64,000 nucleotides of DNA from Acidobacteriota bacterium. Its GTDB lineage: Bacteria; Acidobacteriota; Thermoanaerobaculia; Multivoradales; J023. The notes below the pieces were generated by a model, which was given only the letters and a program-made list of their open reading frames with translations, did no database searches and was not told the DNA's origin. A program made the position numbers and the translations under genes. How positions within the stretch are numbered: position 1 is the stretch's first letter; every line of letters begins with the position of its first letter. Shown here in pieces: positions 20,885-48,945 of this stretch. Location: NCBI GenBank assembly GCA_029263395.1, contig JAJCXO010000162.1, forward strand, positions 8,798-72,797, in the 5' to 3' direction.

Positions 20885-22507
20885 CTACAGCAGGACGCCC
20901 GCCACCGTCGCCGTCATGAACGACGCCAGAGCGCCGCCACACATCGCTCGCAGCCCGATCTTCGACAGGACGGGACGCAGTTCCGGTACCAACGCACTGA
21001 GGCCACCGATCTGAATGCCGATCGACGAAAAGTTGGCAAAGCCGCACAACGCATAAGTGGCGATGATGATCGACCGTGGTTGCAGATCGCCAGCCGCAAT
21101 GTGCTGAGAGAGCACACCGTAGGAGACAAACTCGTTGACTGTCAGCTTGATGCCAAGCATGTTGGCAACGGCGCCAGCGTCAACCCAGGGTACACCCATC
21201 ACGAAGGCCAACGGTGCCAGAATGGTGCCGAACAGAGTCTTCATGCTACCCGGGAAGTAGCCGGCGTATTCGGTGATGGTTTTGCCGGCACGTTCGTATT
21301 CGAAGGCCGCTCCGCCCAACATTCGACCATCGATGATGCCGTCGAAGAAACCGAGGATCGAGTCGAGCACTGCGATCAAGGCGATGAAGGCGATCAGCAT
21401 GGCGCCGACGTTGAGCGCCAGCTTGAGGCCATCACTGGTGCCGTTGGCGGCGGCTTCGACCACGTTGTCGGCGGTCTGAACCTTGGGAATCTCGACATCA
21501 CCAGCCGTCACGGATTGTTCGGTCTCAGGATATAGCAACTTGGCGATCACCAATGCCGCCGGGGCCGACATCACACTAGCAGCCACCAGATGACCGGGAT
21601 TGACCCCCATCTGGATGTAGCCAGCGAGCACCCCGCCAGCGATAGTGGCAAACCCGCCGACCATCACGGCATGGAGTTCGGAAACTGTCATCTCTTTGAG
21701 GAACGGCTTGACCAGAAACGGCGCCTCGGTTTGACCAACAAAAACGTTGGCCGAACACGACATGGTCTCCGAGCCCGAGGTTTTCATGCTCCAATGCATG
21801 AATTTGGCGAAGGACGCGACCACCACCTGCACAATGCCGAGGTAGTACATCACCGACATGAAGGCGGAAAAGAAGATGATTGTCGGCAGCACCGAGAACG
21901 CAAACTGAAAACCGAAGCCCGGCCAGTGGTCACTGCCCGGGAAGAAGTACTGTGGTTTGACCAGATTGTCGAAGAGAAATACAGCCCCTTCGTTGGACAG
22001 ACCGAGAAATGCCGCCACCTTATCCGACAACACCTTGAAAAAGGTCTCGCCATCGATGTCGCGGGCCCACATGGCGCCAAGACCGAGCAATAGGGTGGCG
22101 CCCAGGCCCCGCCGGGCGAACAGCGGTTTGCTGGTGTAAGTCCCGATGACAACCGTCAACACCGCCAGCACCAAGACGACGTCGGTGACGTAATAAGGCG
22201 TCAGGAAGTAGGCCGCGGCGACAATCGCCGCGCTACCGACCAGGGCGACGGCGCGCACTACCCAGGTCCCAAAATCCAAGTCCTGAAACTCTTTCTCGAA
22301 CAGAAAGAGCGTGATCATGAAGATCAGCACGAACATGCCGACGAAGGAAACCAAACCCTGGCTGAGAATAATCACTGCCAGGGTCAGCTGCAGACCAACT
22401 CCCCAAACAACGGTGCGATAGTTGATCGCTTTGCGATCCTTGGAAAAGAGATAGGCGAGGCCCATCAGCACCAGAAGTCCGAGTAAGCTCACCGCTCTTT
22501 CCGCCAT
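20885..22507 (-). CDS. Concentrative nucleoside transporter (NupC/CNT family)
   Basis: Polytopic. The C-terminal 'TYALCGFANFSSIGIQIGGL' matches the CNT-family signature. Confidence 0.75.
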   Translation of the reverse strand: MAERAVSLLGLLVLMGLAYLFSKDRKAINYRTVVWGVGLQLTLAVIILSQGLVSFVGMFVLIFMITLFLFEKEFQDLDFGTWVVRAVALVGSAAIVAAAYFLTPYYVTDVVLVLAVLTVVIGTYTSKPLFARRGLGATLLLGLGAMWARDIDGETFFKVLSDKVAAFLGLSNEGAVFLFDNLVKPQYFFPGSDHWPGFGFQFAFSVLPTIIFFSAFMSVMYYLGIVQVVVASFAKFMHWSMKTSGSETMSCSANVFVGQTEAPFLVKPFLKEMTVSELHAVMVGGFATIAGGVLAGYIQMGVNPGHLVAASVMSAPAALVIAKLLYPETEQSVTAGDVEIPKVQTADNVVEAAANGTSDGLKLALNVGAMLIAFIALIAVLDSILGFFDGIIDGRMLGGAAFEYERAGKTITEYAGYFPGSMKTLFGTILAPLAFVMGVPWVDAGAVANMLGIKLTVNEFVSYGVLSQHIAAGDLQPRSIIIATYALCGFANFSSIGIQIGGLSALVPELRPVLSKIGLRAMCGGALASFMTATVAGVLL

Positions 22508-26680: not shown

Positions 26681-27274
26681 TTGACAGCAAACGGCACCGA
26701 CATCACAGATCTGTTGCTTGCTTGGCGAGGTGGCGACGCCGACGCGCTGGCCGAGCTGATGCCGGTTACCTATCGCAGCTTGAAGGCGGTGGCGGCGCGA
26801 CTGCTGCGCAACGAACGTGGCGGCCAAGCACTGGAAACCACCGGGCTAGTGCACGAAGTCTACCTTCGTCTGGCGGATCTGGAGCGCGTCAGCTGGCAGG
26901 ATCGAGCCCACTTCTATGCCTTGAGCGCTAGGTTGATGCGCCAGATTCTGGTGGACCTCGCCCGCGCTCGGTCGCGCCTCAAGCGCGGCGCCAACCAGGT
27001 CGTGATCTCGGTCGACGAGTTGGAGCCCAAGTCCGAAACCACCCGTCCTCCCGATCTGTTGGCACTCGACGACGCGCTGCGCGATCTGACCAAGATCAAT
27101 GCCGAGTACGCTCGGGTCGTAGAGCTTCGTTTCTTTGGCGGCCTGGGCCGCAACGAAATCGCCGAAGTGCTGGGCATCTCGAGCGCTACGGTCTCGCGAC
27201 GGTGGCGCGCAGCCCGCGCTTGGTTGTCTACTTATCTCGCAGAAGGGCCCGGCCATGCCATCTCTCGGTTTTAG
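26681..27274 (+). CDS. ECF sigma factor of the Ser/Thr-kinase-associated type (ECF43 / TIGR02999 'Sig-70_X6'-like)
   Basis: Region 2 (LLLAWRGGDADALAELMPVTY...LVHEVYLRL) and region 4 (VVELRFFGGLGRNEIAEVLGISSATVSRRWRAARAWL). TTG start with GGAGGG 8 nt upstream. A membrane Ser/Thr kinase follows within ~500 bp. Confidence 0.85.
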   Translation: MTANGTDITDLLLAWRGGDADALAELMPVTYRSLKAVAARLLRNERGGQALETTGLVHEVYLRLADLERVSWQDRAHFYALSARLMRQILVDLARARSRLKRGANQVVISVDELEPKSETTRPPDLLALDDALRDLTKINAEYARVVELRFFGGLGRNEIAEVLGISSATVSRRWRAARAWLSTYLAEGPGHAISRF

Positions 27275-27460
27275 CCGTAAGAAGCTGATACAACCCGGCA
27301 GCCAATGTCGCCTATACAGGCCGAGATCAGCGCATTTCCGCACGTGGGCGCTGCCGGGAGACGCCGGAAGACGTATGAACAACAGTCGATTCACTCCCGA
27401 CCCAATCTCCAAGGACCGAAGCAATGATGCTTGCGGCTCAACAAGAAGGGATTCGAAAGA

Positions 27461-27742
27461 ATGTCGATCAACAAGAACAAGATCGGATGGCTCCTCGGCT
27501 CGCTGGCGTTTGTCATGGTCATGTTTGCAACCTCAACAACCGTGTTGGGTGCGTACAACGATCCCGGTCACACGGAGTGGGTCAAGACTCAGCTGGCAAA
27601 CGCTTATGACTACACTTGCGTCGGCGAGAGTTGCCACGAGCTTTGCGTCGTCTTCCGGTCAGGTCGGGTGGTTCCCAAAGGCACACTCTGCTGTCTCGAT
27701 AGCAGCGGCGTCTGCGACACCAGCACACTCAATACCCCATAG
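27461..27742 (+). CDS. Small secreted cysteine-rich protein (signal peptide + ~62-aa mature region with 7 Cys)
   Basis: MSINKNKIGWLLGSLAFVMVMFATSTTVLGA, then YNDPGH...CVGESCHELCVV...CCLDSSGVCD. No family recognised. It sits between the ECF sigma and its kinase. Confidence 0.5.
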   Translation: MSINKNKIGWLLGSLAFVMVMFATSTTVLGAYNDPGHTEWVKTQLANAYDYTCVGESCHELCVVFRSGRVVPKGTLCCLDSSGVCDTSTLNTP

Positions 27743-27766
27743 CCACCGACCGTCTGGCAGGACACA

Positions 27767-30439
27767 GTGAAGATCGAGGCCTGGGAGGCCGTCCTGGAGC
27801 TCTTCGAGCAGGCCATGGCGAAGCCAGAACCCGATCGCGACGCGTTCGTCCAACGAACCTGCGACGGCGATCCACAGCTGTTGCGAGCGGTCCGAGGCAT
27901 GATCGCCGCGGACCGCCAAGCCGACAACATCCTCGATCAGCCGTTGGTGGAACGCTGCGGCGTGAGGGCAACACCGCGGCTGGCAACTGCGGCGGTCAGC
28001 CCACCGACCCTCCCCAGCGATGGCTCCGGCGGTTTGCCTGTCGTCGGCTGGCCACCTCGTTATCCGCTGGTCGAGCCGGACTGGATCGGACCGTACCGTA
28101 TCATTCGCCAGATCGGCCAGGGCGGCATGAGCACCGTCTACCTGGCGAGCCGTGACGACGACACCTACCACAAACAAGTGGCGATCAAGGTAGTGCGCCA
28201 CGATCTCGAGCACGAACCGATCCTGCGGCGCCTGCGAGCGGAGCGACAGATCCTGGCCAGTCTCGAACACCCCAACATCGCCCGCTTGTACGATGGCGGG
28301 ACGACCGACGAAGGCCTGCCCTTCTTTGTCATGGAGTATGTCGAGGGTGAGCCGATCGATCTGTACTGTGACCACTACGGCCTGACCGTCGACCAACGTC
28401 TGACTCTGTTTCACAAAGTCTGCCAGGCGGTGCACCATGCGCATCAGAATTTAGTCATCCACCGCGACCTCAAACCCACGAACATCCTCGTCGATCGCAG
28501 CGGCGATCCCAAGCTGCTCGACTTCGGCATCGCCAAAGTGCTCAACCCGACGGCATGGGCCCTCGATATCGAGCCGACCCGCACTGTGCACCGCATGCTG
28601 ACGCCTTCCTACGCCAGTCCCGAGCAGTATCGCGGCAAGCTGGTGTCGACCGCTGGTGACGTCTACTCGCTAGGAGTGTTGCTGTACGAGCTGCTGACCG
28701 GCCGCTTGCCCTTCGACTTCGCCGGCCTTTCTCCAGCCGAGGTCGAGCGCCAGCTCATCGAAACCGAACCGAAAGCACCAAGCATGGCTGTCTCCTCAGA
28801 TACCGCGGCATCTGGCAGCCCGGCGCTACCACGGTCCGGAGCCCAGGCACTCTTCGCCGGTGGCCGCTGGTTGAGCAAGACTCTGGCCGGAGATCTCGAC
28901 GCCATCGTGCTCAAGGCTCTGCGCAGCCTGCCGCAGGCGAGATACGGTTCCGCCGAACAGCTCGCCGCCGAGATCGAGCGCTATCGCACTGGCCTACCCA
29001 TCCAAGCTCGTCAAGGTAGCTGGCGATACCGGTCTTACAAATTCGCCCAGCGTCACCGTGCACTCCTCGCCGCCACCGCCGCCACTGGGTTGTTGCTGCT
29101 AGTGGTCGCAATCACCATCATGCAACAAGCCGCCAGAGTTGCACAGGAGCGCGATCAGGCGCAGCGTGAGCGCAATCAGAAGAGTGCAATCATCACACTC
29201 TTCGAAGACCTGATCGCCGAAGCCGACCCTCTGCGCGGCAACGATCGCGATCTGACGGTTCGCGAGTTGCTGGGGGGCAGTAGCCAGCTCTTGGTGGGGC
29301 GGCTCACCGATCAACCCGCAACGCGCGCCGCATTGCTCCACACCACAGGCGGCATGTTAGCCGAGCTCGCTTCGCTAGCCGACGCCCGCGCTCATCTCGA
29401 AGAAGCCATCGCACTGCGAACCGCAAACCTTGGTCCCGACCATCCAGAAACCGCCGCCTCGATGGGTAAGCTGGCGCGCGTCTTGTTGGAGCTTGGGGAG
29501 CTGACAGAGGCCGAGAGGCTGGGACGCCGCTCCGTGGACCTGCTGCGGCAAAGGCATGACCCGGATCCGATCGCTTTGTCTGCTGCGTTGCGCTCGTTCG
29601 CGCTCGTGCTGTGGGCTCGTAATGATCTCGACAACGCTGCCGCCCGCGCACGAGAGGCGCTCGATCTGGTCGCCGACGGTCAACCCTCACTGCACGATAC
29701 CGCACGCTCATTGAGTTTGAATCTGCTCGGGCAGCTGGAAGCCCAGCGGGGACAATACGACCGAGCTGCCGCGGCTACCCGTCGAAGCCTGGCGATCGTC
29801 GAACAGCGCTACGGTGAAGAATCACCCCGGCTGATTCCGATTCTCAACAATCTCGCTCTTGCCTTGCGGTGGTCGAACGAGTTGGAAGAAGCTGAGCAGA
29901 TGTACCTTCGAGCCCGCGCCTTGATCCTCGCAAGCTACGGTGAGAACCATCAGGTTTTTGCGGTATCGAGCAACAACCTCGGCGGCGTTCGATTCGCTCG
30001 CGGCGACTATGACGGCGCGGCGAGCGCCTACAGCGAAGCCCGCCACACCATGAGCGAAACCCTAGGTGCAGATCATTGGAGGGTGTTCTTCGTCGAGACC
30101 AACCTCGCCTCCGCCCGCATTCGATTGGGAGATATCGCGACTGCAGAGCACGACTTGCGGGCCGGGATCGCACACTGGCGAGCTCGACTGAAGGCCGATC
30201 ACTGGCTTTTCGCCCAGGCCAACAGCTTGCTCGGAGAAGCAGCGGCCGCCCAAGGCCGAGTCGCCGAAGCTGAGGACCTGCTCACCACCAGTCTTCGACG
30301 TTTGATCGCGGTGGCGGCCAAGGACCGCTATCAGCGCAAGGCCCTCGAACGCCTCAGCGCCTTCCTGACCCAGCAGGGGCGCAGCGACGAAATCGCAGCC
30401 TTCGAATTGCTCCTGGCGGCCGGTGCCGACGCGACCTGA
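27767..30439 (+). CDS. Membrane Ser/Thr protein kinase with extracytoplasmic C-terminal TPR domain
   Basis: Hanks kinase motifs (VAIKVV, HRDLKPTNIL, DFGIAK, ASPEQ). A single TM helix (ALLAATAATGLLLLVVAITIM) follows. Then ~450 aa of TPR repeats. A conserved ~60-aa N-terminal segment is shared with the other two kinases. Confidence 0.9.
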   Translation: MKIEAWEAVLELFEQAMAKPEPDRDAFVQRTCDGDPQLLRAVRGMIAADRQADNILDQPLVERCGVRATPRLATAAVSPPTLPSDGSGGLPVVGWPPRYPLVEPDWIGPYRIIRQIGQGGMSTVYLASRDDDTYHKQVAIKVVRHDLEHEPILRRLRAERQILASLEHPNIARLYDGGTTDEGLPFFVMEYVEGEPIDLYCDHYGLTVDQRLTLFHKVCQAVHHAHQNLVIHRDLKPTNILVDRSGDPKLLDFGIAKVLNPTAWALDIEPTRTVHRMLTPSYASPEQYRGKLVSTAGDVYSLGVLLYELLTGRLPFDFAGLSPAEVERQLIETEPKAPSMAVSSDTAASGSPALPRSGAQALFAGGRWLSKTLAGDLDAIVLKALRSLPQARYGSAEQLAAEIERYRTGLPIQARQGSWRYRSYKFAQRHRALLAATAATGLLLLVVAITIMQQAARVAQERDQAQRERNQKSAIITLFEDLIAEADPLRGNDRDLTVRELLGGSSQLLVGRLTDQPATRAALLHTTGGMLAELASLADARAHLEEAIALRTANLGPDHPETAASMGKLARVLLELGELTEAERLGRRSVDLLRQRHDPDPIALSAALRSFALVLWARNDLDNAAARAREALDLVADGQPSLHDTARSLSLNLLGQLEAQRGQYDRAAAATRRSLAIVEQRYGEESPRLIPILNNLALALRWSNELEEAEQMYLRARALILASYGENHQVFAVSSNNLGGVRFARGDYDGAASAYSEARHTMSETLGADHWRVFFVETNLASARIRLGDIATAEHDLRAGIAHWRARLKADHWLFAQANSLLGEAAAAQGRVAEAEDLLTTSLRRLIAVAAKDRYQRKALERLSAFLTQQGRSDEIAAFELLLAAGADAT

Positions 30440-30505
30440 AGAGTTTGCTGGCCTAGTCGGCCAAGGCCGAAGTGACGATCGAAAAGGTACCGTAGCCTCC
30501 GAGGC

Positions 30506-30955
30506 TCAACTCTGCTTGTCTACCTGTCGCAGATGGTGCTGCAGATGGACGAGGTAGTCTTCGATCAAGAACTCCAACGTCACCGGCTCATAAGGCTCGA
30601 TCTCGCAGAGTGTGCCGAGTTGATCAGCGGGGATCCGCACAATCACATGCGCCAGATGACGATTGGCCAGCCGCCAGAGTTCGAGCAGCTCTTGCCACGG
30701 GCTTTCGTTGTAACCCTGCAAGCGAATCCACTCGTCCTGCTCGTATTTGGGGAACGTGAGACGCTCGACGAGTTGAGCCCGCACGAAGCGTTGATGGTTG
30801 TTGACCGCCGAATCCACCAAGTGCCCCAAGATCTCTTGGATCGACCACTTGTCGGGGGCCGGCTTGGTGCGAGCTACCGACTCGTCCAGTCTTCCCAATC
30901 GTTCCGCAGTTACTTCCACCACGTCCACCAGTTGGCGGGCTACGTCCTTCACCAT
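30506..30955 (-). CDS. DinB/YfiT-like (DinB_2) four-helix-bundle protein
   Basis: 'WSIQEILGHLVDSAVNNHQRF' is characteristic of the DinB_2 superfamily. The start is chosen at the internal Met. The ORF track begins at 31000. Confidence 0.55.
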   Translation of the reverse strand: MVKDVARQLVDVVEVTAERLGRLDESVARTKPAPDKWSIQEILGHLVDSAVNNHQRFVRAQLVERLTFPKYEQDEWIRLQGYNESPWQELLELWRLANRHLAHVIVRIPADQLGTLCEIEPYEPVTLEFLIEDYLVHLQHHLRQVDKQS

Positions 30956-31107
30956 CGGGTCTCTCCTCTGACGCGTTCGGGGCGTTTGTCCAACACCCAC
31001 AGCGTACCAGGAACCGTCACGATTCGAAGGCTGGAGAAGCCTTCATCACGCGGACGGTCGACGGAGCCCTACGCGATCAGAATCGGCGACAGAAAACTCC
31101 GCCGCCC

Positions 31108-33747
31108 TCATTCTTCGGCCGGCTGGCGCCGGACCTCTGCTGCCCGGTCGGGCTGACCCTTCGCCTCGTACAACACCGCCAAACGTTCGCGAGCCGCATC
31201 AACTCGAGATCCGCGCTGGCTGGCGGCCAGCGCTTCGTAACTCTCAACCAGGAGCTGCTCCGCCTCCTCTAGACGACCGAGCTGAATCAGAAGATCACCG
31301 AGAACCCCGTGGGTCTCGGCAATCGCCGGATGGCCGGCCGGCAAGCCCCCCACTCGCACCCCGAGCGCTTTGCGCAACAGAGCTTCCGCCTCCTCCATCT
31401 CGCCGGCTTGGATCTTCACCGTGCCGAGATTCTGGAGAGAATAGGCGGCTCCCGGGTGCCCCGGTGGTAACACCAAGCTCACGATTTCGAAGGCGCGGCG
31501 ATAGTGACTCTCCGCGGCGACAAGATCACCCTTCAACTGATTCACCTTACCAAGGCTGTTGTTGAGCACGGCCATGTCCCGGTGATCCTTACCCAACACG
31601 CGGACCGAAGCCTCGAAAACCTCTCGATAGAGCGGTTCCGCCGCTTCGTAGTCGCCTTGCTCTAGCAGGACCGCTGCCAGATTGTTCTTGCTCTGCCCGA
31701 CTTGGGTATGCATTTCATCGAAGACTGTCCGCCGAATGGCGAGGACCTCTCGGAACATCGCTTCGGCGCGCTCGAGGTCACCCCGTTGCCGTACCAGGCT
31801 CGCCAGATGGCTGAGGGTCTCGGCGACCTGCGGATGCTCGGCGCCAAGCTGCTGGCGTCTGGTCTCGAGGGCGCGCTGGAAAAGCTCCTCCGCGGCTTCG
31901 AACCGACCGATCTCGGTGTAGAGGATCGCTAGCTCATCCTGGCTGTTGGCCACATCGACGTGATGCTCCCCCAAAACCTCGATGCGCAGCGCCAGAGCTT
32001 CGCGATGGACAAGCTCGGTCTCGTCGTACTCCCCCTTCAAGAACAGTACCCGCCCGAGCTGATCGAGACTTTCCGCGACCAACGGGTCCCAACCCAATGA
32101 CCGACGGCGAATGGCAACCGCTTGACGCGACGAGTTTTCAGCCTGATCGTAGGATGCTTTCGCCAGGTGATATGCCCCCAGGTTGTCGAGGCTGGTCGCA
32201 ATGTCAGGATGTTCGCTCGGCAGGATCCGCCGACGCTCCGTGAGTCCCTCCTCGAGCAGCGGCAGCGCCTTCTCATAAAGTGCAAGACCGAGGTAGATCG
32301 AACCCATGGTGTCGAGCAACATACCGCGCAGCTCGGGCTCTTCGTCGAGGCGCTGGCGGATCGCTTCCGATCCCCGGTCGAGAACCACGCGTACGGTGAC
32401 TTCGCGCCCTGGGGTCTGCCAGGGATCAGAGTCCTGGAGTAGATCGACCAGGAACGTCGACAGCTCCTGTGCCTTGGCGCTCTCGATGCGCGTACGATCA
32501 CTCTCTCGGGCCAACATCGCATTCTGGCGCTCCTTGTCGACCGCAAATCCGGCCAACATCGTGACCACCGCGGCGGCGACCGCAACCCCGATCCGGTGGC
32601 GGCGCAGGAATTTTGCGGCGCGATAGGTCAGGGTATGGGGACGGGCGAAGATCGGCAGACCCGTAGCATACCGTCTGAGATCTTCCGCCAGCTGCTCTAC
32701 CGAGGCATAACGCTGGTCAGGCTCCTCGTCGAGGGCCTTGAGAACGATCCTATCGAGGTCACGGTTGAGCTCGGGTCGAGTCGGTTCCAGCGCCAGAATG
32801 CGCTCGACCGCAGACGGCGTCAGCGACTCGAACACCCGCGGTGGACGGCCGGTCAACAGCCGGTACAACAGCACGCCGAGGGAATAGATGTCAGTCGCGG
32901 TGGTGATCTGCTGGCCCCGCAGTTGTTCAGGGCTGGCGTAGTTGGGCGTCAGCGGACGCAACCCCAGCTGAGTGACCTCGGCCCCGACCGTGGCATCGGG
33001 CTCGAGCAATTTGGCAATGCCGAAGTCGAGCAGCTTAGGGGAGCCGTCTTCGGTGATCAGAATGTTCTGAGGCTTGAGGTCGCGATGCACAACCAGGTTG
33101 CGGTGAGCGTACTGGACGGCGCCGCAAACGCTGCTGAAGAGCTCGAGCCGTTCGGTCACACTGAGTTCGTGGCGCTCACAATAGTCGGTGATGGCGGTGC
33201 CCTCGACATACTCCATGACCAGGTAGGGCCGGCTGTCGTCGGTAGTGCCGCCGTCGAGCAAGCGGGCAATGTTGGGGTGTTCCAGATTCGCCAGGATTTG
33301 ACGCTCGCTGCGGAAGCCGCGCTGAAGGTCACGGGCAATCGTCGGGTTGGCGAGCTTGATGGCCACCTGCTGGTGATAAGCATCGTCGGCTCGGTTGGCG
33401 AGATAGACGCTACCCATTCCGCCCTGGCCAATGAGGCGTCCGATCCGGTACGGGCCGATTCGCGCCCCGTCTTCGATCGCCGGGTGCGACCGCCACAGCT
33501 CGGTCCAGGCGTTGAGGGCCGGCACCTCGAGGAAATCAGGGGTTTCGGCGTCGGCTGCCAGCAACGATTCGATCTCGTCGCGAAGCGTTGGATCGTCACC
33601 CAACTGAGACTCGAGGAAGCGATGGCGTTGCTCCGCCGGCCGCTCCAAGACAGCGTCGAAGAGCTTGCCTACTCTCCCCCAGCGACCGCTGGGCTCTGTT
33701 CCATCAGGCAGATTCTCTCCGCCAAACTGTTGTTCAACGTTACTCAT
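31108..33747 (-). CDS. Membrane Ser/Thr protein kinase with extracytoplasmic C-terminal TPR domain
   Basis: VAIKLA, HRDLKPQNIL, DFGIAK, ASPEQ. TM helix (IGVAVAAAVVTMLAGFAV). Many TPR repeats. Confidence 0.9.
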   Translation of the reverse strand: MSNVEQQFGGENLPDGTEPSGRWGRVGKLFDAVLERPAEQRHRFLESQLGDDPTLRDEIESLLAADAETPDFLEVPALNAWTELWRSHPAIEDGARIGPYRIGRLIGQGGMGSVYLANRADDAYHQQVAIKLANPTIARDLQRGFRSERQILANLEHPNIARLLDGGTTDDSRPYLVMEYVEGTAITDYCERHELSVTERLELFSSVCGAVQYAHRNLVVHRDLKPQNILITEDGSPKLLDFGIAKLLEPDATVGAEVTQLGLRPLTPNYASPEQLRGQQITTATDIYSLGVLLYRLLTGRPPRVFESLTPSAVERILALEPTRPELNRDLDRIVLKALDEEPDQRYASVEQLAEDLRRYATGLPIFARPHTLTYRAAKFLRRHRIGVAVAAAVVTMLAGFAVDKERQNAMLARESDRTRIESAKAQELSTFLVDLLQDSDPWQTPGREVTVRVVLDRGSEAIRQRLDEEPELRGMLLDTMGSIYLGLALYEKALPLLEEGLTERRRILPSEHPDIATSLDNLGAYHLAKASYDQAENSSRQAVAIRRRSLGWDPLVAESLDQLGRVLFLKGEYDETELVHREALALRIEVLGEHHVDVANSQDELAILYTEIGRFEAAEELFQRALETRRQQLGAEHPQVAETLSHLASLVRQRGDLERAEAMFREVLAIRRTVFDEMHTQVGQSKNNLAAVLLEQGDYEAAEPLYREVFEASVRVLGKDHRDMAVLNNSLGKVNQLKGDLVAAESHYRRAFEIVSLVLPPGHPGAAYSLQNLGTVKIQAGEMEEAEALLRKALGVRVGGLPAGHPAIAETHGVLGDLLIQLGRLEEAEQLLVESYEALAASQRGSRVDAARERLAVLYEAKGQPDRAAEVRRQPAEE

Positions 33748-33782
33748 CTACCGAGTAAGGCGTAATCGGGCGCTGATTCAGG

Positions 33783-34349
33783 TCACTCGGAGGTCATTTC
33801 CCGGTAGAGCCAGGCCTTGGCCAACCGCCAGCGGCGTTTGACGGTGGCCGGCGAGCAGCCGAGCACCTCCGCCGTTTCCTCGCCGGTGAGCCCACCAAAG
33901 AAGCGCACCTCGACGATCCTCGCCTGAGTTGAGTCCAGTTCTTTGAGGCGACTCAGGGCCCGATCGAGCGCCAACAACTGATCGGAGCGCTCAAAGGCCA
34001 AATCGACAACCGCCGACAGCGGGATCTTCTCACCGCTGTTCCGCTTAGCAGACCCATGGCGGCGAGCATGATCCACCAAAATCCGCCGGATCATCTTGGC
34101 GGCAATACCAAAAAAGTGCGAACGGTTCTGCCATTGGACATGCTTCTGGTCGACCAAACGCACATACGCTTCGTGGACCAAGGCGGTCGGCTGCAGGGTG
34201 TGATTCTGACGCTCGATCGACAGATAACCCGCGGCTATTTTACGCAGCTCGGCGTAGACCAGGGGCATCAGCTCCTCGCCCGCCTGTGCATCGCCTCCTC
34301 GCCAGGCCTCGAGGAGACAGGTTACGTCCTGCCCACCTGGGGAACTCAT
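33783..34349 (-). CDS. ECF sigma factor (ECF43 / TIGR02999-like), paralogue of the 26681 gene
   Basis: 'DVTCLLEAWRGGDAQAGEELMPLVYAELRK...LVHEAYVRL...VEVRFFGGLTGEETAEVLGCSPATVKRRWRLAKAWL'. The start is chosen at the internal ATG (34349) by homology. The longest ORF starts at 34634 but would overlap the upstream gene. Confidence 0.8.
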   Translation of the reverse strand: MSSPGGQDVTCLLEAWRGGDAQAGEELMPLVYAELRKIAAGYLSIERQNHTLQPTALVHEAYVRLVDQKHVQWQNRSHFFGIAAKMIRRILVDHARRHGSAKRNSGEKIPLSAVVDLAFERSDQLLALDRALSRLKELDSTQARIVEVRFFGGLTGEETAEVLGCSPATVKRRWRLAKAWLYREMTSE

Positions 34350-34420
34350 CAAAAAACAGCTTATCAGGAGCTGAGACGCGAGCAGCGAGCTCAGCCTCAG
34401 TCCACCTCCATCTCCCTGGT

Positions 34421-34455
34421 CCCTACAGCACGAGGCCTTCCCTACAGCACGAAGC
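34421..34455. repeat. 13-bp direct repeat x2 (CCCTACAGCACGARG) between the Cys-rich ORF and the sigma gene
   Basis: Read directly. The repeats lie 19 bp apart. Confidence 0.5.
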
Positions 34456-34536
34456 TTTTCTAAAACACCAAGGTGGGGACCAGGTCTTGGCCCGACCCGA
34501 TCCCCCTGACTCTCTCTGGTCTGTTCAAGCTGTGGG

Positions 34537-34938
34537 CTAGGCGCAGATGCAGACCTTGGGGCCCCAGCCGTAGCAGCTGTTGAAATGCCGCGAACACACG
34601 AAATTAACCGCCGGTTCACCAGGACAGATACCAATACAGTCTGTATGGGTGTTGCACAGGTCGCAGGTGATCGTCACGCTGGTTCTCGGGGTATCGAGCA
34701 CGGTCCTGAAAATTGGCAGGTCGAGCTCCGATAGAGCGGCCATCACAGGTGTCACCGATGCGAAGGACCCAGCAGTCTCGGTCGCGCTGGCTTCAGAAAC
34801 CGCACTGGCCTCTGCCGGCGCCGCCTCCGCTTGTGCGGCCACTGATTCGGCCACGTCATTGCTGCCAGGGTCAGCCAGAACTGGGGTCAGAGTCGCAACT
34901 AGGCCGAGGGTGAGGAGCAAGATCAGCTTCTTCGTCAT
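34537..34938 (-). CDS. Small secreted cysteine-rich protein (signal peptide, Ala/Glu/Ser-rich linker, C-terminal 45-aa module with 10 Cys)
   Basis: MTKKLILLLTLGLVATLTPVLA ... ITCDLCNTHTDCIGICPGEPAVNFVCSRHFNSCYGWGPKVCICA. GGAGAA Shine-Dalgarno 7 nt upstream. It lies immediately upstream of the ECF-sigma/kinase pair. Confidence 0.5.
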   Translation of the reverse strand: MTKKLILLLTLGLVATLTPVLADPGSNDVAESVAAQAEAAPAEASAVSEASATETAGSFASVTPVMAALSELDLPIFRTVLDTPRTSVTITCDLCNTHTDCIGICPGEPAVNFVCSRHFNSCYGWGPKVCICA

Positions 34939-35215
34939 GTCGATTCTCCAAACGGTGTTAAGGGTTACGATCGTTGCCTTCGGGTTCTCGCCCGCAGACC
35001 AGGGCCGCACCTTTTGCGGACCCGTTAGACACGCGCATTCAGGCGCCTGTTTGGGTCAACAAAAAAATCGAGGCCAAAGACGGGCCGACACTCAGAGCTG
35101 CGAACCGGTGCCGGTGATGGCATAACTACCTTGCATCGAGGCGCGCAAACCCACCCTGGATCGACCCACCCTGGATCGACCCGAAGGCCTCGGGCCGATC
35201 CTCACCTTGGTGTCA

Positions 35216-43224: not shown

Positions 43225-45741
43225 CTAGCGAAGCTCACTTCTATCACGTAGGACCGGCGGCTTTCCCCAAGCCTCGTAGAGTTCAACCAGACGTTGCCGA
43301 GCATCGCGGGTGTAGACCGAGCTTGGCCCTTTTTGCTCTAGCAACGCCCGGTGACTGGTGATCAACAACGGTTCGGCTTCTACAAATTGACTTTGGGCAG
43401 TCAGTACCGCCCCCAACACACTGCGGGTATCGGCGAGTCGCCAATAGTCTTCCGGTCGGGTGGCCTGTAGGCTGGTCAACGCTTGCTGAGCCAGCTTGCT
43501 GGCGGCGTCTGGCTGTCCGAGGTCGAGCAACAGGTTAGCCAGGTTACGACGCGAGACCGCTACATCGTGATGCGCTGCTCCCAACTCTCGCAGTCGAATC
43601 TCCAACACTTTTCGAAACAGTGTTTCCGACTCGGAGGTGTCACCCAAACGATGTAAGCAGACGGCCAGATTATTGAGGCTCTTGGCCACCTCGAGATGGT
43701 CTTCACCGAAAATCTGACGCCGTTGATCCGCCACCTCTCTGAAGAGGTCCGCAGCTTTTTGATACGCACCGCGGTGATAACTCAGACGTGCCACATGCTG
43801 CAGGCTCTGCACCAGATCCGCGGCATTCGGTTCGAGCTTGGTACGGCGGATCTCGAGGGCCTGGTGAAACAGGGTTGCCGCTTCTTCGGTCCGGCCTTGG
43901 CTTTCGAGCAGTGTCCCAAGGTTGCTGAGCCCACGCGCCACCTGTAGATCGTCTTGGCCCACGAGCCGATACTTCATCTCCAAGGACTCGCGGTAAAGCG
44001 TCTCGGCTTCGGCTAGCTCGCCGAGATCTTGCAACAGCCCGGCGTAGTTGTTCAACGCCAGGGCCAGCCGGCGATCGTCTCGACCGTCGAAGTGACGGCG
44101 TAGGTTGTCGAGGGCGGTGCGCATCAAGAGTTGGGCTTCCGGGATCTCGTCTTGCCAACGATGCATATAGCCGAGGTTGAACATGGTCTCAGCCACCCGT
44201 GGATCGTCACCGCCGTAGAGCCGGCGCTGGATCTCCAACGACTCGTCAATCAGCGATTCGGCAATCTCCAACGATCCGAGGGCGCCATAGGTCCGACCCA
44301 GGGTCTCCAATACCCGGGCCTGCAACTCCGGCTCATCACCGAGCGACTTGGCGAGCCGTTCCTTAGCCTGATCGATCACACGCCGCGGATTGGGCTTCTG
44401 GCGCGGATCCGGCGACTGCAAGGTTTCTTCCAGGAAAGCCACCACGGTTTCGACCCGCTGGCGCTCGCTCGAGGTTTGGAGCGTCGAACGCGCCAAACCG
44501 ACTCCAAGGGCGAGCAGAGCGGCGGCCACCAGGATTTCTACCTTGCGGCGCCAAACAAATTTAGTGAAGGGATACCACAGCGTGCCGTGTCGTGCAGCCA
44601 CCGGAAGACCGTCGAGATGGCGTTGGATCTCTGCGGCCAACTCGGCGGCGGAGCCGTAACGCTCGGCCGGGTCACGGCAGAGCGTCTTGAGCACGATGGC
44701 ATCGAGATCACCTTGTAGCTGCCGTTTCAATCCTCGGGGATCACACCCCCGGGCTCGGCTCGAGACCTCCGGCGCCAGCTCCGGTCGCCCGGCAATTGCG
44801 GTCCCCACGACCACCGAGCTGGCACGGCGGGGCGGCTCACCTGAGGCCGGCCTCAGGCTAGGTGCGGTGGCGAGGTCGAGATCCCAGGGCAGGCGTCCGG
44901 TCAACAGACTGTAGAGCAACACTCCGAGGGAATAGAGATCACTCGCGGTGGTGATGGCTTCCCCCATCAGCTGCTCGGGGCTGGCGTAGCTGAGAGTCAT
45001 CGGCGCTAGCCCGGTGGTGGTCTCGGGCGCCGACTCGGTAGCGAGTAGCTTGGCAACCCCAAAGTCGAGCAGCTTGGGTATCGCATCCTCGGTCACCAGG
45101 ATGTTCGAGGGTTTGATGTCGCGATGCACGACTAGGTTTAGGTGCGCAAACGCCACCGCCTCGCAGACCTTACTAAACAGCTCGAGCCGTTGGCGGATCG
45201 AATATGCTCGGGTGTCGCAATAGTGATCGATGCGCTCACCTTCAACGTGCTCCATCACGAAGTATGGGCGTCCATCGTCGGTGGTGCCGCCATCGAGCAG
45301 CCGGGCGATGAAAGGGTGTTCGAGCTGGGCCAGGATCCGACGCTCGTGCACAAAACGGCGTGCAATCTCGTCGCTGCCGTGGCCATGGATCAGCTTGATG
45401 GCCACCTGCGCTTGGTAGTCGTCCTCGCGGACAGCAAGGTAGACCTGTCCCATGCCACCGCTGCCGATTTGGCGTTCGAGACGATAGGGGCCAAGTCGAC
45501 GACCAGCGTCCTGGCCCGCCGTCGGTTCGGGCACGCGGAGCTTCAGACATGGCTCTTCGATAAATTCACCAATCTCTGATTCGAGAGCGAGAAACGCCTC
45601 GACTTCCTCACGCAAGGACGGATCGTTGCCACAACGCGCGGCGAGCAGCCTTTCACGCTCGGCGGATGGCAAGATCAGGGCTTCGGCGAGGATCGCCTGA
45701 ATCTGGCTCCAACGGTCGCTCGACCAACCCGTCGCGGCCAC
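43225..45741 (-). CDS. Membrane Ser/Thr protein kinase with extracytoplasmic C-terminal TPR domain
   Basis: VAIKLI, HRDIKPSNIL, DFGVAK, ASPEQ. TM helix (VEILVAAALLALGVGLA). TPR repeats. Confidence 0.9.
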   Translation of the reverse strand: MAATGWSSDRWSQIQAILAEALILPSAERERLLAARCGNDPSLREEVEAFLALESEIGEFIEEPCLKLRVPEPTAGQDAGRRLGPYRLERQIGSGGMGQVYLAVREDDYQAQVAIKLIHGHGSDEIARRFVHERRILAQLEHPFIARLLDGGTTDDGRPYFVMEHVEGERIDHYCDTRAYSIRQRLELFSKVCEAVAFAHLNLVVHRDIKPSNILVTEDAIPKLLDFGVAKLLATESAPETTTGLAPMTLSYASPEQLMGEAITTASDLYSLGVLLYSLLTGRLPWDLDLATAPSLRPASGEPPRRASSVVVGTAIAGRPELAPEVSSRARGCDPRGLKRQLQGDLDAIVLKTLCRDPAERYGSAAELAAEIQRHLDGLPVAARHGTLWYPFTKFVWRRKVEILVAAALLALGVGLARSTLQTSSERQRVETVVAFLEETLQSPDPRQKPNPRRVIDQAKERLAKSLGDEPELQARVLETLGRTYGALGSLEIAESLIDESLEIQRRLYGGDDPRVAETMFNLGYMHRWQDEIPEAQLLMRTALDNLRRHFDGRDDRRLALALNNYAGLLQDLGELAEAETLYRESLEMKYRLVGQDDLQVARGLSNLGTLLESQGRTEEAATLFHQALEIRRTKLEPNAADLVQSLQHVARLSYHRGAYQKAADLFREVADQRRQIFGEDHLEVAKSLNNLAVCLHRLGDTSESETLFRKVLEIRLRELGAAHHDVAVSRRNLANLLLDLGQPDAASKLAQQALTSLQATRPEDYWRLADTRSVLGAVLTAQSQFVEAEPLLITSHRALLEQKGPSSVYTRDARQRLVELYEAWGKPPVLRDRSELR

Positions 45742-45754
45742 CTACATCTCCCGA

Positions 45755-46729
45755 TCAGTGCACGTCGCGACGCGACTCGGAAACATCGTCGCGAGGCGAC
45801 TCGGAAGCACCCTCGCGGCGCATCTCATAGAAGAGGAACCGCCGTGCCATCGCAAAGTCTCGTTTGACCGTCATCGTGGAGACGTCGAGTAAGTCGGCAA
45901 TCTCCTCATGGGTCAAGCCACCAAAAAAGCGCATCTCGACCACCTCCGACTGACGTGGCGCGATCTGCCGGAGACACTCCAGGGCATCTTGCAACGCGAT
46001 CAGATCAAGCGACGTTTCATTGGCAATCTCGAGGTCGGGTCCCAGGGAGACCCGGACGACACCGCCACCGCGGCCATCTTCCGGCATCTTGGAAATCACC
46101 GTCAGTGGCTCGCTGCTGGTGACGTTGCCAAAGGTAATGGTGGCCCCGGAGGTCCGGCTCGGCCAGGGTTCGCGGACCGCATACCGCAGATAATCGGCGT
46201 CCCACTCGTGGCCCCGGGTGGCATGATCAGCACCGTTCTGACCCCTACCGTGGCGTCCAATACCGTGCTCTCCCGAAAGAGACGTTGCGATACACGCAGC
46301 GCCGGTGACGATGCTACGCATCCAGCCGGTAGAGCCAAGCCCGGTCGAAACGATGATCCCGCTGGACGATTGGTTCTCGGCATGTTCGCCGATACGGATT
46401 TCATACCGTGCCGAAGTGTGGCTGCGAGGACCGATAAACAGATCATTGACGCCGTAGAGCACTTCACCGGTATTCAAGGTCACCTGCGCCATCGTCACAT
46501 GGCGTATCGGGCGTCGACGCTCGAAGGTTTCGAGCACTACCGACTCGAGGTGTCCCACCTCGAACGGCAGCAGTACCCCCTCCCACCGTTCGACGTCGGG
46601 ATTGACGCCGATCAGCCATTGTCCGTCCAAGTACTTCAATACGTTCGCCACCAAACCATCCTGCCCGAGGGCAACCACCGTATCGCTGGCCCCGAACATG
46701 AAGTTCGGCAAGAAGGCACGATTCACCAC
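45755..46729 (-). CDS. Fusion protein: N-terminally truncated NAD-kinase-like domain + C-terminal sigma-70 region-4 HTH
   Basis: N-terminal ~230 aa aligns by eye to NadK motifs. GGDG becomes 'LGQDGLV'. NE/D becomes 'VNDLFI'. 'DGLIISTPTGSTAYS' becomes 'SGIIVSTGLGSTGWMRS'. The C-terminal ~70 aa is ECF region 4 (VEMRFFGGLTHEEIADLLDVSTMTVKRDFAMARRFL). GTG start. An in-frame stop 22 codons upstream limits any N-terminal extension. It occupies the position that the ECF sigma holds in the other two kinase loci. Confidence 0.55.
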   Translation of the reverse strand: MVNRAFLPNFMFGASDTVVALGQDGLVANVLKYLDGQWLIGVNPDVERWEGVLLPFEVGHLESVVLETFERRRPIRHVTMAQVTLNTGEVLYGVNDLFIGPRSHTSARYEIRIGEHAENQSSSGIIVSTGLGSTGWMRSIVTGAACIATSLSGEHGIGRHGRGQNGADHATRGHEWDADYLRYAVREPWPSRTSGATITFGNVTSSEPLTVISKMPEDGRGGGVVRVSLGPDLEIANETSLDLIALQDALECLRQIAPRQSEVVEMRFFGGLTHEEIADLLDVSTMTVKRDFAMARRFLFYEMRREGASESPRDDVSESRRDVH

Positions 46730-46949: not shown

Positions 46950-48945
46950 TTATCGCGGTGGGTTGCCCAACGAGCTCAACTCGGCGATGAGCTGATCGAG
47001 CCACGGCTCGACCACGCCGCGGGCACGACGACGGTCACGGATCAACCGCAGGTTGTCAGCCGTCGAAACGCCCTGCCAGGGCTCCGCCATCGTCACCAGC
47101 GCTTCGGCACAAGCGCTCGATGCCGCCGGACCGTCACCGCCGAGCACCGCCAGCTCGAGCGCCGTGGCATGCGCCCAATAGCCGGGTCGCTCAGCCCTCA
47201 GCTGCTGTTTGACCGCAAACTGCACCAAAGGCAAAAGCTCACGCTGGCGTTCCAGGGATTCCGCGGCACCCTTGATGTCGAGCAGGGTGAGCGCGTTGAT
47301 GCCGGCATAACCGTTGCGCCAATCGATCTCAAAACCTTGGATGTAGTTGGCGATTGCCTTGTCGAGGTAGCCGGTGGCCAGGATCGTCCGATCCTGCTGC
47401 TCGGCTTGGCGCCACAGATCTTTGTACGCTCGCCCCATCATGCCGCAGGTTTCGTGACTCGGCCCCACCTCTTGCAACAGCTGGTCGAGCATCCAGATCG
47501 CTTGCTGATGTTCACCTTGCCGATTGAGGGCAAAGGCGAGTTGCTGGCGAGCTGCCGGCAACTGACGCTGCCCCCGCGGTAAACGATCGTAGATCCGCAC
47601 CATGTCGTCCCAACTCTCGACCGCACGATAGGCCAGGAATAGCTCCATCGCGAGGTCGCCATCAACATCCTCGAGCGGGCCCATCTGGGTTTCGATGCCT
47701 TGTAGCTCAATGGCACTGCCGCGACCGCGGGCGCTCGTCAGCTCGCGGATCCACTCGGCCGGCGACCGACCACCCAGCGTCTCAGAGCCCTGCCACAGCA
47801 CGCCGTCCTCGAGCCGCATGAAGAGCATCGGCAAGCTCCAATCCGGCAGATCCGATGCCGTTAGATGGAGCTTTTGGCGGGCCTCGTTGACCGCGGCATC
47901 CACCCGTCCCCACAAGGCGAGATGGCGATAGAGATGCTCCGTAAAACACCCGGCAGCGTCGACAGGAAGGGCGCCAGAAGCCGCAATCGCCGCCGGTACC
48001 CCGCGCCGAACCAGTTGTGGCGCCAGACCGGAGAAGGGGCTGTCCCCGGCGGACGCCCCGCCGTGACAAGCCATCAGGGTGATCAGCCGCAGTGAAAGAT
48101 CTCCCTCGACGATCTCCGCCACCATCCGTTCGGGGACAAGCTCGACCTCACCCGTCGTCGTTTCCAACACCAAATGAGCACAACCCTCGGCGTCGATACC
48201 GCCATGACCCACCAGGTGCAGCACATGAAACCCGCCTTCCAACAGGCGATCACGAATCCGCACGACCGTCGCCGGGACCTCTAACATCTCGAACGACAGA
48301 TGAGGTGTCAGCGGCTCTAGGCTCGTGGTCAACGTTTTGTCGTATCGCCCCAGCATCCATTGCGGCGAGGCCGTAGGCTTCGAGATTCCGCGGCGCCGCA
48401 ACCACGACCAAAACCCGTGGTCGCTCGACCACCGCCGTCCCAGGTGCCAGCGGTACGCTCAGATATCGACTGAGGGTCACAGCGTGAGATCGCCCCAGAG
48501 ACCGGCCCTCGCGGGGATCGCGCAGCAGCTCCCACCGCAGTTGATGCAGCGGTTGCGGTGCCACCGGTGACAGATGCAAACGAACCCGCAGTACCCGCCC
48601 GCCGTTGCGCGCCAAGGTCAGCGCCTCTCGGTAGCCAGCGAGCAACTCGTCACCCTCGCGGAACAGCCCTTGGAAAAGCTGCGTACCGTAGGCGTCGAGA
48701 TCGAGGGCAACCCGCCTCAGCTCGCGGCGCAGACTCTCGCCGAGGTCCGGACGACCGAGGAATTCGCGTCCCGCCACCGACAACATGGCGTGATCGTCAG
48801 CGGTGAGGAGAATCTCACAGTCCAACGCCCGCCGGGAAGCCCGCCCCATGTCTCGAGAGCCGGGGTCACGCTGTGGCACAGTACGGTCTGGCACAGCACG
48901 GTCTGACACAGCACGGTCTGACACGGGATCGTGCGATCGGGTCAT
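46950..48945 (-). CDS. CHAT-domain (caspase-fold) protease with C-terminal helical repeat domain; reading frame apparently interrupted near 48250-48400
   Basis: The upstream part (ORF 48250..48945) carries CHAT N-terminal features (LHQLRWELLRD, RPRVLVVVAAP). The downstream part (ORF 46950..48401, a different frame) carries the His/Cys dyad contexts (VLHLVGHGG; LITLMACHGG). A ~270-aa alpha-helical C-terminal domain follows. The two ORFs overlap by ~150 nt. That is consistent with a frameshift or sequencing error in a single gene. Confidence 0.6.

Follow-up and report, generated by a model that had tools for sequence, protein, structure and literature searches.

In the genome of an Acidobacteriota bacterium, two gene pairs that each encode an extracytoplasmic function (ECF) sigma factor and a receptor Ser/Thr kinase are accompanied by a small gene for a Cys-rich protein, which raises the question of whether this small protein is part of the signalling pathway. 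We analysed a 64,000-nt stretch of the assembly (GCA_029263395.1, contig JAJCXO010000162.1, 8,798–72,797 of the forward strand; hereafter the window), with a focal span of 26681–34938 in window positions. The adjacency of a TIGR02999/ECF43-type sigma factor to a Ser/Thr kinase is an established arrangement. The sigma-kinase core of this region is thus already known, and the small Cys-rich third gene is the new element. Three modules lie in the region, two of them complete and one decayed. Each pairs a TIGR02999/ECF43-like sigma factor with a Hanks-type kinase that has a single transmembrane (TM) segment and C-terminal tetratricopeptide repeats (TPRs), and both complete ones include a small open reading frame (ORF) whose N-terminus is hydrophobic and whose C-terminal part is rich in Cys. 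Going by sequence comparison, we propose that the region is a known sigma-kinase signalling device plus a small periplasmic third component, with one of the small proteins (A) as an accessory subunit of the sensor, a reading that we consider evenly balanced between right and wrong. The family of A, which lies beside 8/10 related modules, is probably an unrecognised third component of the pathway. The two complete modules consist of the following genes.

26681–27274, plus strand: sigma1, a TIGR02999/PF07638-type ECF sigma factor (ECF43-like; TIGR02999 199.9 bits, PF07638 8.3e-50)
27461–27742, plus strand: ORF A, 93 aa from its ATG, with a hydrophobic N-terminus (signal peptide or anchor) and a ~55-aa six-Cys domain
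27767–30439, plus strand: kinase1, 890 aa, with an N-terminal three-helix segment, a Pkinase match (4.5e-45), a TM segment at ~430–455 and C-terminal TPRs (TPR_12/TPR_10)
31108–33747, minus strand: kinase2, 879 aa, of the same architecture as kinase1 (Pkinase 9.7e-48, TPR_10 8.7e-63, TM segment at ~384–405)
33783–34349, minus strand: sigma2, a TIGR02999-type ECF sigma factor (TIGR02999 217.7 bits, PF07638 5e-57)
34537–34938, minus strand: ORF B, 133 aa, with the signal peptide MTKKLILLLTLGLVATLTPVLA cleaved before DP, an Ala/Glu/Ser-rich spacer and a 45-aa C-terminal eight-Cys domain

These features agree with the gene orders and all of the coordinates of the original prediction, sigma1-A-kinase1 on the plus strand and B-sigma2-kinase2 on the minus strand. 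It had also described a signal-like N-terminus and a Cys-rich region in both small ORFs, which we see as well; its counts of 7 and 10 cysteines, however, have to be corrected to 6 in A and 8 in B. Here and below, signal peptides and topology were judged by hydropathy, charge distribution and cleavage-site rules.

ORF A is, by its composition and conservation, a real gene of a rare, previously undescribed family. Its longest reading starts at 27431 and its stop lies 24 nt before kinase1. The GC content of its third codon positions (GC3) is 0.72, like that of the neighbouring genes, versus 0.55 for the overlapping frame. A short basic stretch, part of ~10 predicted cytoplasmic residues, is followed by the hydrophobic run and then by cysteines in the pattern C-x4-C-x-E-x-C-x14-CC-x6-C. 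Among the six-frame ORFs of the whole window, only five combine a hydrophobic N-terminus with at least 5 cysteines, and GC3 is coding-like only in A and in B (0.70), both of which abut a complete sigma gene. With no other coding-like ORF of this kind in the 64 kb, the association of small ORF and sigma gene exceeds chance.

No relatives of ORF A were found in Pfam, NCBIfam or the PDB, and a word-index search of 5.8 billion proteins returned ORF A itself as its sole match, so homologues were sought among the neighbours of kinase1 relatives. Using phmmer with A against 1.84 billion cluster representatives, we obtained just three true relatives, plus spurious repeat proteins. The homologues in five loci (L005–L009) are 94–100 aa long and have no Pfam match. 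Aligned with A, they show the hydrophobic N-terminus first, the motif E-W/Y-V..T next and C-x(4-9)-C-x-E-x-C-x(12-17)-L-C-C-x5-G-x-C last, in which the six Cys, one Glu and one Gly are invariant across all of these proteins although the relatives are only 26–39% identical to A. Divergent A-like versions in two other loci (L090 and L093) have four Cys and retain the C-x-E-x-C core. The hydrophobic run is 16–20 residues long in all members, which fits a cleaved signal as well as an uncleaved anchor. A hidden Markov model (HMM) of the family gave no further match in the ~600 kb of fetched loci, and the family is confined to uncultured Acidobacteriota-type genomes.

For kinase1 itself, over 7,900 homologues were recovered at E ≤ 1e-50. 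For gene context, we examined the window together with nine kinase1 homologues that are 44–62% identical to kinase1, giving 10 modules. An A-like gene lies within 8 of the 10 (the window, L005–L009, L090 and L093), in the following positions.

Between the sigma gene and the kinase gene: the window, L005 and L093
Just upstream of the sigma gene: L007, L008, L009 and L090
Just before the kinase gene: L006, where the contig ends

Beyond its three genes, the flanks of the module are mostly unrelated from locus to locus. The only residual synteny that we noticed was a gene for a Na+-dependent nucleoside transporter, lying a few kb away, at 20885–22507 (minus strand) of the window and at 701–2011 of L007. 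That a rare family occurs almost only inside the module, with the linkage kept through rearrangement, is strong evidence of functional coupling. For ORF A, the expectation of the original prediction that the small gene would be conserved and would co-occur with the sigma-kinase pair has thus been borne out, in two gene orders.

We then compared these modules with a wider set of sigma-kinase pairs. A metagenome scan with the sigma alignment yielded 80 TIGR02999 soil loci, with sigma factors 44–56% identical to sigma1, as a control set. A kinase gene is directly downstream in 61 of the 85 loci analysed, where it usually overlaps the sigma gene, by 4 or 11 nt. Neither an A-like nor a B-like gene was present in the control loci, whether sought by HMM or by motif. 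Nor did they contain a convincing small Cys-rich ORF with a hydrophobic N-terminus on the same strand; two ORFs passed a crude filter, and both look non-coding in composition. An A-like gene in 8/10 related modules versus 0/61 control modules corresponds to a Fisher p of 4e-9. The suggestion that such genes would be found next to other ECF43-kinase pairs therefore holds within the kinase1 clade and fails among the wider control loci, and we rejected the small Cys-rich gene as a general trait of TIGR02999-kinase pairs.

The kinase sensor also differs between the two sets. Of 30 full-length control kinases, one has a TPR region resembling that of kinase1 and the rest have mostly other sensor regions, so the presence of A follows the type of sensor domain and not the sigma family as such. 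This pattern fits a partnership of A with the periplasmic domain of the kinase, and shared ancestry within the clade would give the same pattern. As a separate observation, other, unrelated genes for small secreted Cys-rich proteins lie just downstream of the kinase, on the same strand, in two of the loci: a DUF6289 gene with 6 Cys in L090 (6754–7086) and a gene of 125 aa with 8 Cys in L093 (6453–6830). These two genes could be members of the sigma regulon.

The HRDLKPxN, DFG and VAIK catalytic motifs are visible in the kinase translations, and each kinase has exactly one strongly hydrophobic segment, which lies between the catalytic domain and the TPRs and has a basic cluster on its N-terminal side. 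As the catalytic domain must be cytoplasmic, we infer from this single segment that the TPR region is periplasmic. The layout originally predicted for the kinases (catalytic domain, one TM helix, extracytoplasmic TPRs) is thus matched by Pfam and hydropathy, as a predicted topology. For A, the ~10 predicted cytoplasmic residues leave no room for an anti-sigma domain and the Cys-rich domain must be periplasmic. We accordingly rejected A as an anti-sigma factor, as it has no cytoplasmic domain, and a Pfam search found no anti-sigma domain among the ORFs of the modules.

Another candidate for contact with the sigma factor had been the segment that the three kinases share ahead of the catalytic domain, which the original prediction took to be anti-sigma-like. 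The segment itself is well conserved: in a 40-sequence alignment its W, F, C and P are nearly invariant, and its motif is present in 117 fetched kinase homologues. Residues 22–116 of kinase2 align to residues 8–102 of PDB 9EED (PknS 1–364 of Xanthomonas citri; E 8.6e-14), a structure of the cytoplasmic part of PknS (PMC13147305). The first 81–83 residues of PknS are conserved among Xanthomonadaceae, are invisible in the crystal, are predicted by AlphaFold to form three to four helices and have no assigned function (PMC13147305). In our hands, the segment modelled as a three-helix bundle with a predicted local distance difference test score (pLDDT) of 82, and a comparison of this model with PDB structures gave no significant match and none to an anti-sigma domain. 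These results do not support the anti-sigma label; what they show is homology to the PknS extension.

Both sigma genes score above the curated NCBIfam cutoff for TIGR02999 (126.15 bits), and we regard both products as ECF43-like, with the ECF43 group number deduced from TIGR02999/PF07638 membership. Kinase1 starts 492 nt past sigma1, with ORF A between them, and kinase2 starts 35 nt past sigma2. ECF43 sigma factors are activated when the neighbouring kinase phosphorylates a conserved Thr, as in the pairs PknT/EcfP and PknS/EcfK (PMC8999054; PMC13147305); in this group the acidic DAED motif of region 2.2 is replaced by QTTA or STTA with the phospho-acceptor Thr (PMC13147305; PMC8999054). The corresponding position reads ETTG in sigma1 and QPTA in sigma2, each directly before LVHE. 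The Thr (Thr54 in sigma1) is invariant in 6/6 aligned sigma factors, and sigma1 retains one acidic residue. Scans for sigma-70 promoters and terminators gave no signal above chance.

The third module of the window lies outside the focal span and consists of two genes.

43225–45741, minus strand: kinase3, 838 aa, of the same architecture, with the N-terminal motif, NCBIfam kinase and TPR matches and a TM segment at ~399–421; no small Cys-rich ORF adjoins it
45755–46729, minus strand: third sigma remnant, a sigma-4 half fused to an NAD-kinase-like N-terminal part, directly upstream of kinase3

The original prediction implied that this module is incomplete, and indeed the sigma gene beside kinase3 keeps its sigma-4 half only. 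The TIGR02999 match spans profile positions 98–182 only, a custom sigma HMM matches over positions 99–189, and a sigma-2 half is absent in every frame. The gene looks like a recombined or decayed one that leaves kinase3 an orphan.

Some further observations concern the kinases and their neighbours. A 9.3-Mb contig (L005) and a 12.2-Mb contig (L092) are single very large genomes with several paralogous kinases of the kinase1 clade; one contig carries the paralogous set P0006, P0060 and P0089, and another the set P0016, P0099 and P0117. A CHAT-domain protein that also has TPR-S and MAP3K_TRAF_bd matches adjoins kinase3 (46950–48401, minus strand), and a CHAT protein is also found beside the kinase in L009 (6735–9311), possibly a gene neighbourhood that recurs around these kinases. 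Kinase1 is followed convergently by a DinB_2 superfamily gene (30506–31000, minus strand), and such a gene likewise follows its 57%-identical relative in L006 (3644–4141), there on the same strand.

The small gene of the second module, ORF B, is a different protein. The idea that A and B form one family was rejected (hhalign probability 2%). ORF B lies 187 nt upstream of sigma2, has GGAG 7 nt before its ATG and carries a textbook-like signal-peptidase site (TPVLA followed by DP). A word-index search gave three matches in all, including two homologues from other Acidobacteriota metagenome-assembled genomes, with 65% and 57% identity; a genome scan for further relatives returned an already-known contig only, and a metagenome scan returned none. 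Across the three proteins, hardly any position changes in the signal peptide or in the last 45 residues, and it is the Ala/Glu/Ser-rich spacer that varies. The ratio of nonsynonymous to synonymous substitution rates (dN/dS, Nei-Gojobori) is 0.17–0.27 for the Cys domain and 0.07–0.18 for the signal peptide, at a dS of 0.6–0.9. With dN/dS of ~0.2, B is a real, constrained gene. Its Cys motifs, CxxxC (CIGIC) and a terminal CxC (CIC), recall cysteine-stabilised alpha-beta peptides, and we obtained no Foldseek, Pfam or PDB match for the Cys domain, nor an NCBIfam match for B.

In L001, the B homologue is followed after 151 nt by the sigma2 ortholog, and then the contig ends. In L002, a 1-kb contig, the next ORF after the homologue is convergent, and there is no sigma gene. 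The expectation of conservation and co-occurrence is therefore only partly upheld for B, which is under purifying selection and is known from three genomes, with the sigma gene absent after one of the three. One more feature lies directly upstream of B.

34939–35065, minus strand: conserved non-coding block of ~125 nt, with counterparts at ~4935–5060 of L001 and ~60–185 of L002

The block is near-identical in the window, L001 and L002, and the sequence further upstream does not align. The synonymous sites of B have diverged far more than the block, an indication that B has its own promoter and leader, and the block is probably a promoter plus 5' leader. A structured RNA was considered here and rejected, as there was no Rfam match and there were no compensatory changes among the three sequences.

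Taking the two modules together, we propose the following mechanism. A Hanks-type kinase with a periplasmic TPR sensor would activate its own ECF43-like sigma factor by phosphorylating the conserved Thr of region 2.2. The N-terminus of A would cross, or anchor in, the inner membrane and expose a predicted disulfide-rich six-Cys domain to the periplasm, where it may bind the TPR domain of the kinase, as both would be in the same compartment. There, A could serve as a co-sensor that delivers the stimulus, perhaps as a reporter of disulfide or redox status or as a ligand-binding protein. Alternatively, it could be a co-expressed feedback inhibitor that damps the kinase, following the logic of MgrB on PhoQ. 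The role of B is less certain than that of A, and B is only weakly tied to its module. As a secreted pre-pro-protein with eight Cys in its domain, B may do for kinase2 what A would do for kinase1, or its production may be under the control of sigma2. The broader form of the idea in the original prediction, in which A, and perhaps B, are genetically encoded ligands or co-receptors of a three-part pathway from Cys-rich protein to TPR receptor kinase to phospho-activated sigma factor, we regard as possible but less likely than not.

Several observations weigh against A and B as components of such a pathway. No A-like gene was found in the modules of L091 and L092, so the kinase can exist without A. 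(L091, without a small gene, and L093, with one, are separate contigs of one European Nucleotide Archive sample, ERZ26222911.) A small Cys-rich gene is likewise missing beside kinase3 and in the 61 control modules. B adjoins a sigma gene in only 2/3 genomes, and its own upstream block suggests an independent transcription unit. The AlphaFold2 model of the B Cys domain places a helix and strands at CIGIC and CIC, but its pLDDT is only 57, and it is a poor model. Finally, we searched upstream of the modules for a shared ECF-type promoter, and the best k-mers and two-block motifs were no commoner than in shuffled sequences.

The small proteins could instead be outputs of the system, i.e., secreted effectors (antimicrobial, defensin-like or metal-binding) transcribed under the adjoining sigma factor. 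ECF sigma factors commonly regulate adjacent genes, and B in particular has the layout expected of such a product, with a signal peptide, a variable acidic spacer and a conserved 8-Cys domain bearing the CxxxC and CxC motifs, besides its own conserved upstream block; the unrelated small secreted Cys-rich genes downstream of the kinases in L090 and L093 would also fit. In three loci, however, A is flanked by the sigma gene and the kinase gene, and in the window it immediately precedes kinase1, a placement typical of a pathway component. A-like genes also track one type of kinase sensor, and the Cys domain of B matches no defensin or toxin family in Pfam or the PDB. We consider outputs unlikely overall but a serious rival, especially for B. 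A peptide-like product of another kind, a RiPP (ribosomally synthesized and post-translationally modified peptide) or lanthipeptide, was rejected. Lanthipeptide systems of class III/IV pair a leader peptide that has no Sec signal with a synthetase of lyase, kinase and cyclase domains. Here the LanL match reaches 80 bits (cutoff 650) and the LanKC match 45 bits (cutoff 575), both over the kinase domain only, and A and B carry Sec-type N-termini. It is also conceivable that the small proteins leave the cell as diffusible ligands for the TPRs, in an autocrine or quorum-type manner resembling plant Cys-rich peptide/receptor-kinase pairs. The tight genetic linkage of a small Cys-rich secretory protein with a receptor Ser/Thr kinase would be in keeping with this, as would the general ability of TPR domains to bind peptides and the clean signal-peptidase site of B (VLA followed by D). 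Yet Acidobacteriota are diderms, in which a Sec signal alone reaches the periplasm, and the modules encode no dedicated exporter. The hydrophobic runs of the A family also suit an uncleaved anchor, and a ligand and receptor that are co-expressed in one compartment would signal constitutively unless release were controlled. As a Sec substrate of a diderm stays periplasmic or membrane-anchored, an accessory subunit is favoured over a diffusible ligand, and we consider the latter improbable.

Lastly, the adjacency might carry no meaning, with lineage-specific genes or gene-calling artefacts happening to lie beside sigma genes. The families are tiny (word-index matches of 1 for A and 3 for B), one B homologue has no sigma gene after it, and two related modules have no A. 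But the Cys pattern of A is invariant despite the low identity of its members, its linkage survives changes of gene order, and B is under purifying selection. The absence of other coding-like ORFs of this kind from the window and the Fisher test against the control modules point the same way. For A this explanation is very unlikely, and for the small proteins as a whole we give it hardly any weight.

The preferred reading, A as an accessory subunit of the kinase sensor, can be set beside several known systems. As in PknS/EcfK of X. citri and PknT/EcfP of Vibrio parahaemolyticus, a TIGR02999/PF07638 sigma factor adjoins a transmembrane Hanks kinase with periplasmic TPRs, and a Thr stands at region 2.2 in place of the acidic DAED (PMC13147305; PMC8999054). 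The N-terminal extension of the kinases is also homologous to that of PknS. The descriptions of these pairs that we consulted do not name a small Cys-rich periplasmic protein in the module; here one is conserved across a whole kinase clade, and the TPR region is ~430 aa long, compared with the three TPRs reported for PknS. We found no description of a third small component in the papers covered by our search, which did not extend to the key Vibrio paper. A also resembles class I ECF anti-sigma factors in being encoded beside the sigma factor and in having a single TM segment and an extracytoplasmic part; it differs in having no cytoplasmic anti-sigma domain, and the kinase N-terminal segment does not supply a structural match.

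A functional parallel may be MgrB, a small membrane protein that binds to PhoQ's periplasmic domain as part of a feedback loop tied to DsbA (PMC11825808). It is built into the expression of its own pathway and links that pathway to the disulfide state of the periplasm (PMC11825808). Like MgrB, A would combine a membrane segment at its N-terminus with Cys residues in a periplasmic part and would be tied to a sensor kinase pathway, although this is a functional analogy only. MgrB is 47 aa long, has two periplasmic Cys and acts on a histidine kinase, whereas A, with 93 aa and six Cys, has a Ser/Thr kinase and a sigma factor as its linked partners, and the two have no sequence relation. In plant Cys-rich peptide/receptor-kinase pairs such as SCR/SP11-SRK, a small secreted 6–8-Cys protein is encoded in genetic linkage with a receptor Ser/Thr kinase. 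These pairs are eukaryotic and extracellular and use other ectodomains, we found no homology to them, and the predicted periplasmic site of the proteins described here argues against a diffusible signal.

Phosphorylation of ECF43 sigma factors is a recently established route, shown for EcfP/PknT and EcfK/PknS; on the stimulus of the receptor kinase, reviews go no further than stating that PknT "somehow senses" polymyxin stress. Being genetically locked to one kinase clade, A is a concrete candidate for this input side. If the three-part pathway from Cys-rich protein through receptor kinase to sigma factor is true, it would be the first defined input for the ECF43-type route of sigma phosphorylation and a bacterial counterpart of plant Cys-rich-peptide/receptor-kinase signalling. 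If A acts as proposed, its family would be a new entry among the few small proteins known to modulate sensor kinases of bacteria.

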